Shown here: piece by piece, positions 49,909-56,988 of the stretch
How the letters are laid out: the number at the start of each line of letters is the position of its first letter
Position numbering within the stretch: the first letter of the stretch is position 1
The notes under the pieces: generated by a model
Told to the model about the DNA's origin: nothing
Database searches by the model: none
The model's input: the letters and a program-made list of their open reading frames with translations, nothing else
Source: an uncultured Gemmatimonadales bacterium
Lineage (GTDB): Bacteria > Gemmatimonadota > Gemmatimonadetes > Gemmatimonadales > Gemmatimonadaceae
Length of the DNA: 64,000 nucleotides
Assembly: GCA_963707505.1 (NCBI GenBank)
Contig: CAVPQB010000004.1
Coordinates: 1,344,001 to 1,408,000, forward strand
Direction of reading: 5' to 3'
Position numbers and translations under genes: made by a program

Positions 49909-50636
49909 GGGACCACGCTACCGAAGACAGCGCCGCCCGACAAAGAGCCGCACGGCAGCTGGGCGACTCCGAGAGCGCCGACCAACCGTTGTCCCTCACG
50001 AAGCTCCCTGTCTCCTCCGTGGGGGGTGATGGCGCGAGTACCGCAGCCACGAAAGCACCGGTCGCGTCGCGCTGGACTTGGCCTCCGAGCGGCAGTCCTC
50101 CTTCGGGGCAACGAGCGAGAAGAGCGGCAGTCAGCGGCTGACGCCCCGGCTGGCGACGAAGGGGGAGCGCTCGCCGATCGCCGGTCCGAGCGTCTGCTTG
50201 CTCGCCAACGGCTAGCACCGCTGCGTCGCGAAGTTGCGCTTGGTCGCCGAAGCGATGCCGAGCTGCGCGAGGCTCTGAGACGAAAGCGATCATCACAGTG
50301 TCCTCCAAGTGATGTACGCCGATGAGCCATGCGGCGGCCCCAGCGGTGATCGCCTTCACGCGATTGCGAGGGCGCGGTTGCTGACGCGCCCGGTCGCCTT
50401 CTGCATGCCGTCTGCCCTGGCAACTTCTTCAGGCCGGAGCAGGATCGGCGGGGTGCCGGCGTCCGCGCGTGGGAGACGGTCGGCGAGTCCGTTCAGGTGT
50501 GCGCCGCAGCTCGACAGGAGGTCTCCGGCCGTAGCGCGGGCAGGCACCTCGTGCCGGGCGACGATCTGCGTTGGGGGACCGATGCAGCTGGTCGGTTGCG
50601 TGGTTTGCGCGGGCGAGGCGTATGTTGCTAGCGACG

Positions 50637-51781
50637 ATGGTGAGTGGTCAGCCCGAGGCAGGTGAGCTGCTGGGTGCGTCGTTGCCGCATCTGGTGCCCG
50701 AACGGGTCGTCGAGGTCGCGTCGGCGCAGGCGGGCTGCCCGGTCGCGGCGTATGTGCTGGATCTGGATGGGTCGTTCGCTCTGCGTTTGGCCGGCGATGT
50801 GGAGCGGTTTCCCGAGCGGATCCGTGCGCCGGTCGGTGTCGGCCCGGAGATCATTCCCGAGGCTATGCCGCAGTTGCGGGGGCTGGTGATCGATCGCGTC
50901 GGACCGAGCACGCTGTGGCCGTTGGTGGTTCGCGATCGCGTGATGGGCTTTCTGCTGGCTCGCGACCGGCCGGCGGTTGATCTGGAGCCATTTGCGGGCC
51001 AGGCCGCGTTGGCGCTGGAGTTGGCGTCTGGCTACACCGACGCGTTGCATGCCGTCCGTCGGCGCAAGGACACTCAGCCCGCTGCCGAGATTCAGCAGAA
51101 CCTGTTGCCGCCGCGGCTGGCCCGTGTGGACCGGGCCGACGTCGCCGGGGGTGTGCTGCCGGGCTATGACGTCGGCGGCGACTTCTTTGATTACGCCGCC
51201 AACGCGGACGGCTTGTGGCTGGTCGTCGCTGACGCGACCGGAAAGGGCAATCCGGCCGCGGCGCTGTCTTCGTTGGCGATCGGGGCGCTGCGCGCCGCTC
51301 GCCGTGCCGGCGCTGGTCTGCAGGAAGCCGCGCGGCTGGTCGACGAGGCGATCCTGACGCTCGATACGCCGCTGTACCTGACCGCGGTGCTGGGATCCTG
51401 GGATCCCCACACGTATCGGCTGCGCTGGATCAACTGCGGCCATCCCACGCCGCTCGTCCTGCGCGCCGATGGGCGGATCGAAGAGCTCGACGGCGAGCGC
51501 ACCTATCCGCTGGGCATGCGCTTCGCCGAGCGCGTGTTCCCGGTCCTCAGCGCTGAGGTGGGCCCGGAGACCGCCTCTTGCTGTACTCCGACGGGGTCAG
51601 CGAGCGCCGCACCACAGACGGCGGCCGCATCGGCGAGACGGGCCTGCGTGCGGTTCTGGCCGAGCTGGGTACCCGGTCGGCCGCGATGACGGTACGCGGC
51701 TTGCAAGACGCGGTGATAGACGCCTCCCGTGAACCGCTGCGCGACGACGCCACGATGCTGGTGATCGCGCCCCACGACTGA
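50637..51781 (+). CDS. SpoIIE/RsbU-like PP2C phosphatase, frameshift near 51570
   Basis: EIQQNLLP, VGGDFFD, VADATGKG, NCGHP, LYSDG, RDDATM. Confidence 0.87.
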
Positions 51782-51847
51782 CAACCCAACCGGTCCCAGC
51801 CCGATGCGACGCGGCTAGCCGGTCGTCATCGAGGGTAGCTTCCGATA

Positions 51848-52205
51848 GTGCGCGAGGAGACACGTGAGCCGCGAACAGTCATGTGCGACGACGTCGCGGT
51901 CGTCACGGTCAGCGGCGAGCTCGATCTCGCGCTGTGCATCAAGCTCGCCCCCGAGCTCAATGCCGCGGTGCGCTCCACCGCGCGAGCGGTCGTCATCGAT
52001 CTCGAGGACGTCTCCCTGGTCGATTCCTCGGGTATCGCGCTGCTGCTAAATGCCTTCCGCCATCTAGACCACGCCGGGCGCCAGCTCGCGATCGCCTGCC
52101 CGCATGGGATCGCCGCGCCGCGCGTTCGAGCTGACAGCCCTCGATCGCCAGCTGCCGATGCACGAGACCCGCCGAGATGCGCTGGCTGCCGTACGCGTCA
52201 GCTAA
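51848..52205 (+). CDS. STAS anti-anti-sigma factor (RsbV-like), frameshift near 52110
   Basis: SGELDL, IDLEDVSLVDSSG; tail RRAFELTALD in another frame. Confidence 0.83.
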
Positions 52206-53418
52206 CCGTCTTTGGGTGAGGACAGCCACCGGCGCCAGGCTGGCGGGCGGGATCTAATCGAGAGCGCATCGCTCAGGTGCGTCGTCTAGGTGTAGTTCCT
52301 GACCACGTTGTTCCGGTCTGAGGGGTAAGCCATCCGGTGCTCCTTGGAGGCTGACAGGTGCTCAAGCCAGTCAGTCCCAAGGAGGACACCGGATGAAGAT
52401 GCACGCTAACGCTCGGCTCAGTCTGAAGGGCCGCGAGCTGCTGGTCGATCGCGTCCAGGACGCGGGGTGGTCGCTGGTCGCGGCCGCCGAGGCGGCCGGG
52501 ATCAGTGACCGCACCGCGCGCAAGTGGCTGGCCCGCCACCGGGCTGAAGGGCGCGAGGGGCTGCTGGATCGCTCCTCAGCCCCGACGGTGGTCGCCAATC
52601 GCACCGAGGAGCGCACGGTCGAGGTCATCGCTGCGCTGAGGCGGCTGCGCCTGACCGGCGCGGAGATCGCCGAGTGCCTGGATATGGCGCTCTCGACCGT
52701 GTCGGGGATCCTGACCCGGATCGGGCTGGGGCGGCTGGGGCGGCTGGGCTTGGAGCCCGCGCAGCGCTATGAGCGAGCTCGCCCGGTGAGCTGATCCACA
52801 TCGACGTCAAGAAGCTCGGCCCGATCCACAACGGCGCTGGGCACCGCTTCACCGGCCATCCCGGCCAGCGCCGGGCCGCGGGCAGCCGCACCGACGCCGA
52901 AGGCGTCCGCCGCAACCGCAGCGGCTGGGAGTACGTGCACGTCGCCATCGACGACGCCACCCGCCTGGCCTACGTCGCAGTTCTCGCCAACGAGAAAGCG
53001 CCCACCGCCATCGGATTCCTGCGCCGCGCCGTTCAGCACTTCGCCAGCTACGGCATCACCACCGAGCGACTGATCACCGATAACGGCAGCGCCTACCGCT
53101 CCACCGTCCACGCCATCGCCTGCCGCGCCCTCAAGATCCGCCACCTCCGCACCCGGCCCTACCGACCCCAGACCAACGGCAAAGCCGAACGATTCATCCG
53201 CACCCTGCTCGGCGGCTGGGCCTACGGCGCGATCTACCGCTCAAGCGCCGAGCGCAACGCCGCCCTCGCCGGCTGGCTTGACTTCTACGGATGAAAGTCA
53301 AGTGGCAGGAGCGGTCTGTTGGTGGGATCCTTTCGGGTGGTGCGGGTGACTGACGAAGCGAAGTGCAGGTATCAGGGGCTTGTGGCCTGCCGCGCGGCTT
53401 TGCCCTTCGAGGGCCTTT

Positions 53419-54652
53419 CTAATGCGCGCCCCGGTGTCGCGCCCGCACCACCGTTCGGTCGCTGTCCAGTCGGCGACGAGCCGGCGATAGGCCGTCTCGG
53501 CCTGGCCGGCGAGCTCTTTCTCGAGGCGACGCTGATCGACGCTGGCAAATGTGCGTCCCGCGCTCGCGAGGCGTTTTCCTTGTTGGCGTGGCGCGCCGAG
53601 CATGCAGCTCATAGCGCCGCAGCTTCTCGCGGTGCAGCGAGGGTCGGCCAAACGCGTATCCCTCGCCGCGGCGCAGCATGTGAAACGCGATGACCACGAG
53701 CTTGCGGGCGACCGCGACCGTGGCGATGTTCGCGCCGCGGCGGGCGGCGACCCGCTGGTGGAACGCGCGCAGCGGGCCGGTGGTTCTCGCGGCGTGCCAC
53801 GCCGCTTCGACCAGCAGCCCCCGAACCGGCCCGGGGCCTTGTTTGCTGATCCGGCCGTGCTTGGCGGGCTCGTTACCGGATTGACTGCACCCGCGGGCTC
53901 AGCCCGAGATAGCCGACCAGGTGATCGGCGGTCGGGAACCGGCGCACATCACCGATCGCGGCCAGCATCGCGGTCGCGGTCACGCCGCTGACTCCCGGGA
54001 GGGTCATCAGCCGGCGGATGTCCTCGCTGGCGAGCACCTGCTTGGCGATCTCGATGTCAACCAGCTCGATCTCTGCGGCTAGGAAATCGATCTGGCGCAG
54101 GCACGCATCGACTGTCTGCTGCTCATCGGTCGGCAGCAGCCTGCACTGGTCAGAGAGCCAGATACGTCCCTTGACCCCGAACACGTCTGTCATCGGTGGC
54201 CGGCTCTTGAGCTGGCGTTGGAGAACGGCGTGCACCTGGTTCTTCTCACGCACCCGCTGACGCACGAGGTGCATTCGCCGGGAGATCAGGCGCCGACGGA
54301 CCCGCGTGGGCTCATCAGGCGTCCACACCTCCGCCAGGAAGCCTGCCGCCAGCAGACGAGCCAACAGCGCCGCGTCGATCTTGTCGGTCTTGGCTCGCAG
54401 ACCGGTGATCCTCTTCACCGACTTCGGGTCGGCCAGCACCACCTGCGCGACGTGCGGCTCGACGATCCGGGCGATCGCCAAGGCGTTCGCCGTGGCCTCC
54501 ATCGCGACCACATCGTCCGGCGCCAGGCTGCACGCGAACACCTCCAGCTCTGACGGGGTGCTCGCCACCTGACCGGCGAAGCGCAACCTGCCGTCCTCGA
54601 CGACCGCGACCTCGCAGAAGTCACGATGGACATCTACTCCGATGAACCTCAC
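53419..54652 (-). CDS. IS110 recombinase A, frameshifts near 53885 and 53605
   Basis: IGVDVH, AMEAT, KTDKIDA (DEDD); LPGVS, GLSPRV.QSG, LVEAA, AVARKL. Confidence 0.88.
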
Positions 54653-54669
54653 CACCACCTCCTTCAGCT

Positions 54670-54880
54670 CGAAGAAGCAAGGTGGAGACGCGGCGGGCAA
54701 AACGACAACTACGGATCCGTGCTCGAAGCACACCCGGGCAAGTCGCGGGGGCGGCCAACTACAAATTGCGGGCTCTCAGCCCATAGAACTAACGGCCTGC
54801 CCAGCCAACGTTCTCCCGGAACCCCCGTCCCGGAACGCCGCCAACCTACGACGGGCCCCGGACACAACGGGCTCCAGGAC
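54670..54880 (-). ncRNA. Putative bridge RNA of IS110-A
   Basis: AGUUCUA and UUGUAG match target actt-CT-acaa; UGCCC and AUCCGUAG match donor tgccc-CT-acggat; each pair flanks a hairpin; ends approximate. Confidence 0.68.
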
Positions 54881-55059
54881 GCAGTTTCATGCCCCTACAA
54901 TCGCCGCCGACCACACGGCGCCCTCAGCCACAAGCCACCCATCGACCGCCTCAACGAACGGAACAACCTCCTCGGGTCCTACAGCTGATATGGAGAGTCG
55001 TTTGTCAACCCGGGCGCGGTGATTTGTCGCTGGTGGCGCCGTGGGGGTGTGGGTGTGGT

Positions 55060-55260
55060 CGGCTGGGTGGGTGGCGGTCCGGCTTGCTGTGCGCGACGCG
55101 CGGTCAGGCTGATATTCGCGGGTTGGGACCGCAGGACCATGTTCGTCGTGGGGAGCCGCTGTCTAGGATCGGGCGTGGCCGGCCGGTGAGGGCGGGTTGC
55201 TCATAGCTGTCTCGCGGGTTCCCCGCGCGTGCCGGGCCGCCACCGACCCAGCCGACGGGA
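55060..55260 (-). ncRNA. Putative bridge/seek RNA of IS110-B
   Basis: ACAGCUA and CCUAG match target acag-CT-agg; AUAUCAG is complementary to donor CT-gatat; ends approximate. Confidence 0.68.
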
Positions 55261-55274
55261 TGAGGGACTCGGGG

Positions 55275-56357
55275 TTACTCGATTTGGCTGATCGCCCAGC
55301 AGAACCCGGCGAGCTCGCGGGCGGCGGCGACGGCGATGATCGTGCGGCGCTTGGCGCGGGCCTCCAGACGGGTCCAGGTGCGATGCAGTCGCCGTTGGGC
55401 TGACCAGGCGATCGCGATCGCCTCGGGTGGCTGGCCGTCCTGGCGCTCGGTGAGTGCCTTGCCGATCGCGGGGCGCTTGCGGTAGTGCCAGGCGGCTTCG
55501 ACCAGCAGCCGCCGGGCGTGCCCAGAACCGGTCTTGGTGATCGACCCCAGCCGTCGCTGCTGCCCGGTGGTGTTCTCGCACGGGACTAGGCCGACGTAGT
55601 TCATCAGCTGCTCGGCCTTCGCGAACCGTTCGAAGTCGCCGATCTCTGAGCACAGCCCGACCGCGGTGAGCGTGTCGACCCCGCGCAGGCATCGCAGCCG
55701 CCCGACCTGCGTGGCCCACGGCGAGCTCGGGAGCAGCGCGAGGATCTCGCGCTCTAACGCGTCGCGGCGGTGACAGAGCGCGTCGATCGCTCCCTGCACG
55801 TCGAGCAGCGTCGATTGCGCGGCCGGCCACTGCAGCGTGATCGTCGCCAGCCAGGCTCGGTGGCGGTCTGTCCACGCCTTCCCGTCGTCAAACCGGATCC
55901 CGTGACGCAACAGCAGCTTGGAGAGCCGATGCCGGGAGCGCATCAGATCCACCCGAACCTGCTCGCGGGCGCGGACCAGGTCGCGCAGCGCCTCCTCCTC
56001 GGGCCCGGGCACCCTGACCGGGTGAAGCTTGCCGGCCAACAACAACCGGACCAGATGCTCGGCGTCACGCCGATCGGTCTTGACCCGATCCCCCGACGCC
56101 CGCGGGATCTTGCTCGGCGCCGCGACCACGCACTCCACGCCGCGCCGCGCGAGCTCCCGCGCGAGCCCGTACCCGGTCGGGCCGGCCTCATACGCGACCC
56201 GCACCGGCCGCGGCAATCCCGCGCAGAACCCGGCCGCCCCACCAGCATCACCGCTCATCGCAAACCGCGACAGCTCCCCGGTCTCCGCGTCCAGCACCGC
56301 CGCGACGATCTTCGCCGCGTGCACGTCCAAGCCGACGACGGTCCTAGCCTTCGCCAT
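55275..56357 (-). CDS. IS110 recombinase B, intact ORF
   Basis: VGLDVH, YEAGPTG, KTDRRDA, GLVPCENTTG, ITKTG, LVEAAW, AAARELA. Confidence 0.95.
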   Translation of the reverse strand: MAKARTVVGLDVHAAKIVAAVLDAETGELSRFAMSGDAGGAAGFCAGLPRPVRVAYEAGPTGYGLARELARRGVECVVAAPSKIPRASGDRVKTDRRDAEHLVRLLLAGKLHPVRVPGPEEEALRDLVRAREQVRVDLMRSRHRLSKLLLRHGIRFDDGKAWTDRHRAWLATITLQWPAAQSTLLDVQGAIDALCHRRDALEREILALLPSSPWATQVGRLRCLRGVDTLTAVGLCSEIGDFERFAKAEQLMNYVGLVPCENTTGQQRRLGSITKTGSGHARRLLVEAAWHYRKRPAIGKALTERQDGQPPEAIAIAWSAQRRLHRTWTRLEARAKRRTIIAVAAARELAGFCWAISQIE

Positions 56358-56580
56358 GGCTGGTTCCTCCTATGCGATTGTGGGCCGCCGCGCGGGTACC
56401 AGCCGCGCGGCATAACTTCACCCCCACCGACGACGTGGGGGGAACCGGCCTCTTCTATCTCTCAGGCCGGACGGACCAACAATCCATATTGTCTAGGCGA
56501 GCCGGGGCAGCAGGTCGGCATGTCTCTGCTCCCTCCCGTTCGTCGACTCGCCGTCGGGCAGGTTGCGCGGACCCCAGTTG

Positions 56581-56988
56581 CTACGCGTTTACGGGTTCGG
56601 GCGCATCGACCAAGTCCGCATCTGGGGCGAGAACGAAGATCTCGACCAGCCGGTCCGGGTCAAACAGGATTTGGCTGTGGTAGCTGACGATCTTGCGCTC
56701 GAGGACGTCCTCGACGCGGCGGATGAGTTCGGGGGCGATCACGGCTTGGAAGCGGAGACGGTATGCGCGTACGGCTTCGTGCTCTCCTCCGCGGACCATC
56801 GTTTCCTCATCGCGGGTCATGCCGCCGCTCATCGTGCAGAACACGTATTCGTCGCAGAAGTAGGTCTTGGCGTGGGTCGGGCCGCGTCCGTAGAGGTCCT
56901 TCATCGTGCGCACGACGGCTTGTGAGACACGCGCTTGCAGGGACTGCGCCTCTGAGGGGCTTCCCTCGGTGACTTCGTCATCGGCCAT
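56581..56988 (-). CDS. DUF2294/MpsC-family protein
   Basis: VSQAVVRTMKDLYGRGPTHAKTY...EIFVL. Confidence 0.85.
   Translation of the reverse strand: MADDEVTEGSPSEAQSLQARVSQAVVRTMKDLYGRGPTHAKTYFCDEYVFCTMSGGMTRDEETMVRGGEHEAVRAYRLRFQAVIAPELIRRVEDVLERKIVSYHSQILFDPDRLVEIFVLAPDADLVDAPEPVNA

Follow-up and report, generated by a model that had tools for sequence, protein, structure and literature searches.

Mobile elements at the locus

The window (the whole 64,000-nt stretch that was analysed, part of genome G000) contains a cluster of insertion sequences flanked by a SpoIIE-type phosphatase/STAS pair (50571-52219) and an MpsC-family (DUF2294-type) gene (56581-56988). Within this cluster, an IS110-family element, designated IS110-B, abuts the right end of an IS481 element whose reading frame is interrupted by a second, broken IS110 element, IS110-A (Table 1). 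A genome search returned one copy each of IS110-B, IS110-A, and the IS481, and G000 therefore offers no series of targets of its own.

IS110-B ends at a short CT core (AG on the sense strand of the element) on both sides, with no longer duplication, in the window and in relatives. The plus-strand junctions read TACAG-CT-GATAT at the IS481-proximal core and ATTGT-CT-AGG at the distal core. Excision of the element in silico restores a pre-insertion site, ACAG-CT-AGG, that comprises the last three bases of the IS481 followed by its right flank. The non-coding ends of IS110-B measure 288 nt on the 3' side of the recombinase gene versus 135 nt on the 5' side. Promoter and terminator scans of the linear form found neither. 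In the predicted circle junction, TTGACA lies 17 nt from GACAAT, the latter agreeing with the −10 consensus at 4/6 positions.

The homologue set consisted of 80 loci at 47-94% identity, mostly from Solirubrobacterales, which share the element ends and the 3' region. The nearest of these, at 79-94%, are from Solirubrobacterales, in contrast to the order of G000 itself, where 24 of 300 other genomes matched, all at only 39-49%. Between ~36000 and 64000 of the window (G000:C4 from 1.38 Mb), GC content climbs from 0.62 to 0.67 and the frequency of CTAG increases. Either the segment was acquired as an island or the contig is chimeric at its end, and another host may have been the source of the IS110-B locus.

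Table 1. Coordinates of the insertion sequences and of the predicted RNA segments in the window
Feature	Position	Strand	Remarks
Left IS481 target duplication, TCTAGG	52285..52290	+	Right copy, GCTAGG, split by IS110-B
Host IS481 (TGT...ACA)	52291..54983	+	PF13011, PF00665, PF13683; frameshifted, split by IS110-A
IS110-A, second, broken IS110 in the IS481 reading frame	53290..54899	-	Limits approximate
IS110-B element	54987..56492	-	Bounded by CT cores 54985-54986 and 56493-56494; ends conserved across relatives
7-bp subterminal inverted repeat, right-end arm	54988..54994	-	Partner at 56483-56489
TTGACA, putative −35 box	55003..55008	-	From sequence, conserved in most relatives; putative promoter function
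Predicted bridge RNA: outer stem enclosing a target loop followed by a donor loop	55073..55245	-	Within the 288-nt 3' non-coding end; limits approximate
Right donor guide AUAUCAG and handshake base C	55108..55115	-	C pairs with target G at −1
Left donor guide (..AUGGUC)	55135..55142	-	5/6 match to donor ATTGTC; register as in the accessible part of the IS621 report (PMC11208158)
Right target guide CCUAG and handshake bases AC	55161..55167	-	Covariation with the other flank
Left target guide ACAG-CU	55205..55210	-	Covaries with the flank in 55 elements
Intact 360-aa IS110-family recombinase	55275..56357	-	PF01548 and PF02371 (RuvC-like DEDD domain and Tnp domain)

The IS110-B recombinase

Alignment to IS621 and a motif survey place the DEDD residues of the recombinase at D11/E57/D95/D98. 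The conserved catalytic serine that precedes a glycine is absent; its place is taken by Thr264 (codon 55566-55568, minus strand), which aligns without gaps to the catalytic Ser241 of IS621. Homologues have threonine here in 35 of 96 and 23 of 77 cases and serine otherwise. In some of them, Ala or Gln stands immediately before this position. Threonine occurs in nearly the whole 79-94% clade and is scattered elsewhere, including in multi-copy elements of G302 and G303. A threonine nucleophile, a conservative variant of serine, is predicted from these alignments. In the literature covered, which excludes subscription papers and ISfinder entries, we found no description of a threonine nucleophile.

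A predicted bridge RNA with covarying guides

The first-pass annotation, made from the sequence alone, had proposed that a bridge RNA lies downstream of the recombinase gene. The motifs on which it relied are where it placed them, in the same orientation as the recombinase gene (minus strand): ACAGCTA at 55204-55210, CCTAG at 55163-55167, and ATATCAG at 55109-55115. A further motif, ATGGTCC, is located at 55134-55140 (minus strand); its match to ATTGTCT had been counted as 5/7. The match is indeed weak, and the count becomes 5/6 because the left donor guide of IS621 has the core C as its last base, as the accessible part of PMC11208158 describes together with the handshake pairing. The G-versus-T mismatch of this guide recurs in 17 of 38 relatives. 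In the window, the right donor guide is complementary to the circle junction at 7/7 positions and the left at 5/6, and both right guides run on into handshake bases that fit the post-insertion junctions (CCUAG-AC and AUAUCAG-C). When the region was shuffled 100,000 times under a Markov model, one shuffle contained three ordered guide matches.

Both the bridge RNA and its guide assignments are strongly supported by covariation in 55 relatives. Sixty-six elements had a right end (65 loci and the window), of which 55 could be parsed with their flank. At positions −4 to −1, the left target guide matched the flank at frequencies of 0.71, 0.89, 0.89, and 0.87 (n = 55), compared with 0.33-0.43, and a maximum of 0.64, over 2000 shuffles. 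For the right target guide, the base two before AG matched the flank in 35 of 38 elements (20.7 when shuffled). The handshake base after the right donor guide equalled the −1 base of the target in 43 of 54 elements, versus 23.4 when shuffled (maximum 34). Covariation of the donor guides was seen at one position (23/38 vs 15.6), with donors that vary too little for a strong test. An extension of guide pairing to −5 and −6 was considered and rejected: position −5 matched at the shuffled level (22 of 90 vs 20.4, among the matches listed). Since pairing ends at −4, the RNA does not read the inverted repeat (IR) of the IS481.

The 3' region folds better than its shuffles (z = −3.9), and a fold constrained to leave all guides unpaired lies 2.9 kcal/mol above the minimum. 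The target loop is seen in the single-sequence fold. RNAalifold on 20 close relatives returned a different fold in which just 2 of 44 pairs were compensated. An Rfam search gave no meaningful match. In expression data, 12 runs had small word shares, and contigs from four runs, derived from relatives, covered the gene and the non-coding end alike and gave no indication for or against a discrete RNA.

In two clades (L046-L049; L052, L054, L059, L062, L065, L068, and L071), similarity of the right flank extends past the four-base guide, which suggests short repeated targets or longer element ends. Six ORFs scanned in the conserved flanks of L046-L049 and L052, L062, L065, L068, and L071 included no transposase.

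IS481 insertion often creates the target

The host IS481 carries its right IR at 54959-54983 (IR scores 29.2 and 21.4). Both a frameshift near 52790 and IS110-A already disrupt it, and its target duplication is imperfect at the first base. The proposal that IS481 transposition itself would create the IS110-B target is supported by 29 IS481 relatives fetched regardless of IS110, of which 24 had clear ends. Right flanks read NCTAGN in 23 of these 24. Perfect 6-bp duplications accounted for 17 of 23 flank pairs, a count to which end calling contributed by giving weight to duplications, and the G that IS110-B requires starts the right flank of 13 of 23. A first-base mismatch like that of the window also occurs where no IS110 is present (L250, L254). 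More broadly, L249, L250, L254, and the window all show first-base-mismatched duplications with G beside the right-end ACA.

The order of events can be read from the far end of the IS481. Had the IS481 inserted beside a resident IS110 end, its far end should repeat that IS110 end. Both IS481 and IS110 do use CTAG-containing sites, which would suit this order. The far end, however, reads NCTAGN in the window and in 7 of 7 visible relatives among the matches listed (L037, L116, L168, L173, L184, L189, and L237), and the IS481-facing junction lacks CTAG. We therefore reject IS110-first insertion as scarcely credible; at the visible loci, the IS481 preceded the IS110. The near and far copies of the duplication form a perfect pair, split by the element, in L037, and are mismatched in three or four others (L168, L173, L184, and L189).

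Other IS110 elements were also encountered in or beside IS481. IS110-A sits at F-Y/N-R codons of the IS481 frame, and its 5' non-coding end contains segments that match the insertion site as well as the donor junction of IS110-A itself. In a set of 29 relatives, an IS481 gene is likewise interrupted by L319, at a different position, and L317 is situated where an IS481 begins. L064:2339-3883, a relative with 50% identity, is inserted at the beginning of an IS481 gene, in its H-A-N codons, and its guides spell this conserved codon stretch. The right flanks of L006, L025, and L029 (from ~3880) adjoin the left end of another IS110; L034 has the same flank and no gene.

Landing sites of relatives with the same guide

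The first-pass annotation described the guides as aimed at the IS481 terminus. We scanned metagenomes with the RNA pattern alone, which gave at least 120 loci (~220 estimated); 102 had a right end, and 90 distinct sites were left once 12 short or duplicate flanks had been removed. Among the matches listed, 70 of the 90 sites are exact AG-CTGT and 35 (39%) are identified as IS481 ends by protein or by IR score. Of the listed sites, 28 have an IS481 transposase at the expected distance, 21 at right ends and 7 at left ends; the distance rule had yielded 29, and the doubtful L118 was dropped on inspection. The remaining 55 of 90 listed sites (~61%) lie away from IS481 ends, the outcome that the annotation had itself put down as counting against it.

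With one motif test applied to both sides, the IR signature was found at 30 of 70 occupied exact sites versus 109 of 1064 free ACAGCTAG sites (~10%) in 119 genomes, a background from one order set against metagenome loci whose hosts were not identified. The odds ratio is 6.6 (p = 2e-11, with relatedness ignored), and IS481 ends are enriched about four-fold over their average availability; metagenome contigs may favour repeated flanks. The idea of aiming thus holds as an enrichment and fails as an exclusive preference.

Word coincidence would account for these numbers if the guide were an ordinary short CTAG-centred one, not tied to IS481 by selection, and if the enrichment arose from IS-rich hosts that carry both elements and from assembly bias. 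The 11 genomes with at least three signature sites, which were chosen on outcome, are consistent with this view: 77 of their 181 free sites are IS481 ends, a share (43%) identical to the one observed (ten of the genomes sum to 74 of 170). As availability in IS481-rich genomes equals the observed rate, host co-occurrence could explain much. Guides also change fast in the window's clade. In a quick version of the tree, for which 42 metagenome rows had been chosen for ACAG and the count of ACAG-versus-TCAG changes is uninformative, nearly every member of that clade has a different guide and 2 of 20 rows keep ACAG. Against coincidence, ACAG (10/55) and TCAG (6/55) are the commonest guides among the 55 protein-selected elements and together make up 16 of the 55, though ACAGCTAG averages only ~9 sites per genome. 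Both are spread across the tree, and ACAG recurs in clades only 48-65% identical. The ACAG guide matches TGT-type IS481 ends; TCAG fits TGA-type left ends (L037, L247), and 3 of 13 TCAG sites are IS481 ends.

In whole-genome assemblies, ACAG copies sit at IS481-type ends in only 5 of 17 cases (4 of 16 if two G303 copies represent one event), distributed as G000 1/1, G303 3/3, G304 1/1, G302 0/2, G305 0/1, G890 0/1, G1027 0/3, and 0/5 for five single loci. Coincidence gains from G302, G1027, and G890. The closest relative of IS110-B, in G302 (94% identity, same guides), has neither of its two copies at an IS481 end, and one IS481 8-mer site there is empty. G1027 has three copies at near-cognate sites, and neither G1027 nor G890 contains a G-type IS481 signature site; the elements thus spread in hosts without a cognate IS481 end as well. 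G303 weighs the other way, as its copies occupy IS481-type ends with ninth-base mismatches while two perfect 9-mers stand empty. For one ACAG element in G303 (L279, G303:C8), the IS481-type end is a solitary 25-bp inverted repeat that no transposase follows. No other perfect ACAGCTAGG 9-mer was present in the G000 assembly, which is 83% complete. On balance, we consider coincidence a doubtful explanation.

At the opposite extreme, the complex might biochemically prefer IS481 ends, for example by recognising the IR itself, a bound IS481 transposase, or intermediates of transposition. G303 would fit such a specialisation, with two to three IS481-type ends occupied and none of its five free sites being IS481, as would the use of both IS481 ends. 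We nevertheless judge it very unlikely: no pairing extends beyond −4, most sites are elsewhere, and free cognate IS481 ends are present in G302 and G304.

Stop codons at insertion sites

Because the donor continues as CT-GA, insertion converts any C-TAG stop to C-TGA, and the other strand keeps TAG. As had been suggested for this locus, the IS481 stop changes from TAG to TGA, and the reading frame has the same ...LGSYS* ending with and without IS110-B. IS481 relatives typically finish their reading frames on the TAG of their own target. The rescue is family-wide and applies to any gene ending in C-TAG, beyond IS481. Among the matches listed, 47 non-IS481 sites remained once 39 IS481-like and 4 short ones had been set aside, and by a crude frame test 19 of these 47 resemble in-frame host stops, versus 3 and 0 in the other frames. 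Free CTAG sites in actinobacterial flanks were stop-like in 39 of 311 cases (~13%; odds ratio 4.7). The further suggestion of a harmless landing site is plausible as a general property; it is not specific to IS481, and for the already broken IS481 of the window it is moot.

These counts, along with the habit of IS481 frames of ending on TAG, would also be expected if selection for kept stop codons alone shaped the distribution, with IS481 as one class of gene ending in AGC-TAG. Such a gene-end safe harbour leaves the dominance of ACAG over other 4-mers unexplained, and at least seven of the protein-confirmed sites lie at IS481 left ends, where an IS481 stop plays no part. We rate it unlikely as a rival; it can hold alongside the explanation that we prefer, which incorporates part of it.

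Proposed mechanism and relation to known systems

That explanation, which we regard as probable, is that IS110-B is an IS1111-like bridge-recombination element whose guides target ACAG-CT-AG(G), with IS481 ends as a frequent, non-exclusive landing site. Four guide segments in the 3' non-coding end would steer the recombinase to this short word. If IS110-B behaves as IS621 and ISEc11 do, it would form a circle whose junction makes a promoter (TTGACA, 17 nt, GACAAT), the RNA–recombinase complex would pair with target and donor, and strands would be exchanged at the CT core. An insertion at an IS481 end or at a host C-TAG stop would keep the stop codon and survive selection. IS481 ends supply a large share of cognate sites, since CTAG is scarce in these genomes and IS481 duplicates NCTAGN on insertion and has ACA as its last three bases. 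The enrichment most likely results from word availability and survival, selection having favoured guides that match IS481 footprints. The link to IS481 is real and recurrent, yet non-exclusive. More tentatively, and with somewhat less than even confidence, we propose that a widespread actinobacterial IS110 lineage keeps or re-evolves ACAG and TCAG under selection because IS481 makes the target, with a stop-restoring CT-GA donor and, in many members, a threonine nucleophile.

Judged against the accessible portions of the IS621 reports (Durrant 2024, PMC11208160; Hiraizumi 2024, PMC11208158), IS110-B shares the DEDD and Tnp domain recombinase, the CT core, the guide order LTG-RTG-LDG-RDG, a left donor guide ending on the core C, and handshake bases after both right guides. 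Unlike IS621, its RNA lies downstream of the gene, and threonine occupies the Ser241 position. The target word is ~8-9 bp, with a left target guide of 6 bases versus 9 in IS621, and the frequent target is an IS481 end or stop codon rather than REP.

Features shared with the IS1111-group elements ISEc11, ISPa11, and ISKpn4, insofar as the available part of Siddiquee 2024 (PMC11187229) covers them, are the long 3' non-coding end, subterminal inverted repeats, and relatives that are naturally reprogrammed. In the IS1111 group, the top-strand target match likewise lies 5' of the bottom-strand match; the first guide of IS110-B is complementary to the top strand in the element's sense. The 7-bp repeat, close to the ends, falls at the lower end of the 7-17 bp IS1111 range (PMC11208160, accessible part), whereas the 360-aa recombinase is outside the 330-350 aa given for IS1111 in the text available. 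A 3' non-coding end is also found in some IS110-group members, not in IS1111 alone.

Downstream guide RNAs, natural reprogramming, and IS110 elements that target other mobile elements are already known. IS4321/IS5075 target Tn21 terminal repeats (by a title cited in PMC11187229) and ISEc21 targets IS3 DDE codons (PMC11187229, accessible part), and like them IS110-B lands on another mobile element. In contrast to these cases as the accessible text presents them, the IS110-B site straddles the terminal 3 bp of the IS481 and its duplication, and exists only after the IS481 inserts; the host IR also stays intact, and use is not exclusive. Our literature search, with subscription papers and ISfinder entries outside its scope, turned up no publication that connects the guides of IS110 elements with IS481 ends, and the accessible part of one preprint (bioRxiv 10.64898/2026.08.31.748434) names IS481 only in a list.

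The lineage represents a heavily reprogrammed short-target bridge system in which nearly every close relative has a different guide, and its stop-codon-preserving insertion design and candidate phosphothreonine recombinase are relevant to bridge-recombinase biology and engineering. If true, the proposed link would be a clear case of a guide-RNA sequence shaped by the target-site chemistry of another mobile element, with one transposon following the footprints of another, and the natural series of guides makes this idea of target shaping testable.
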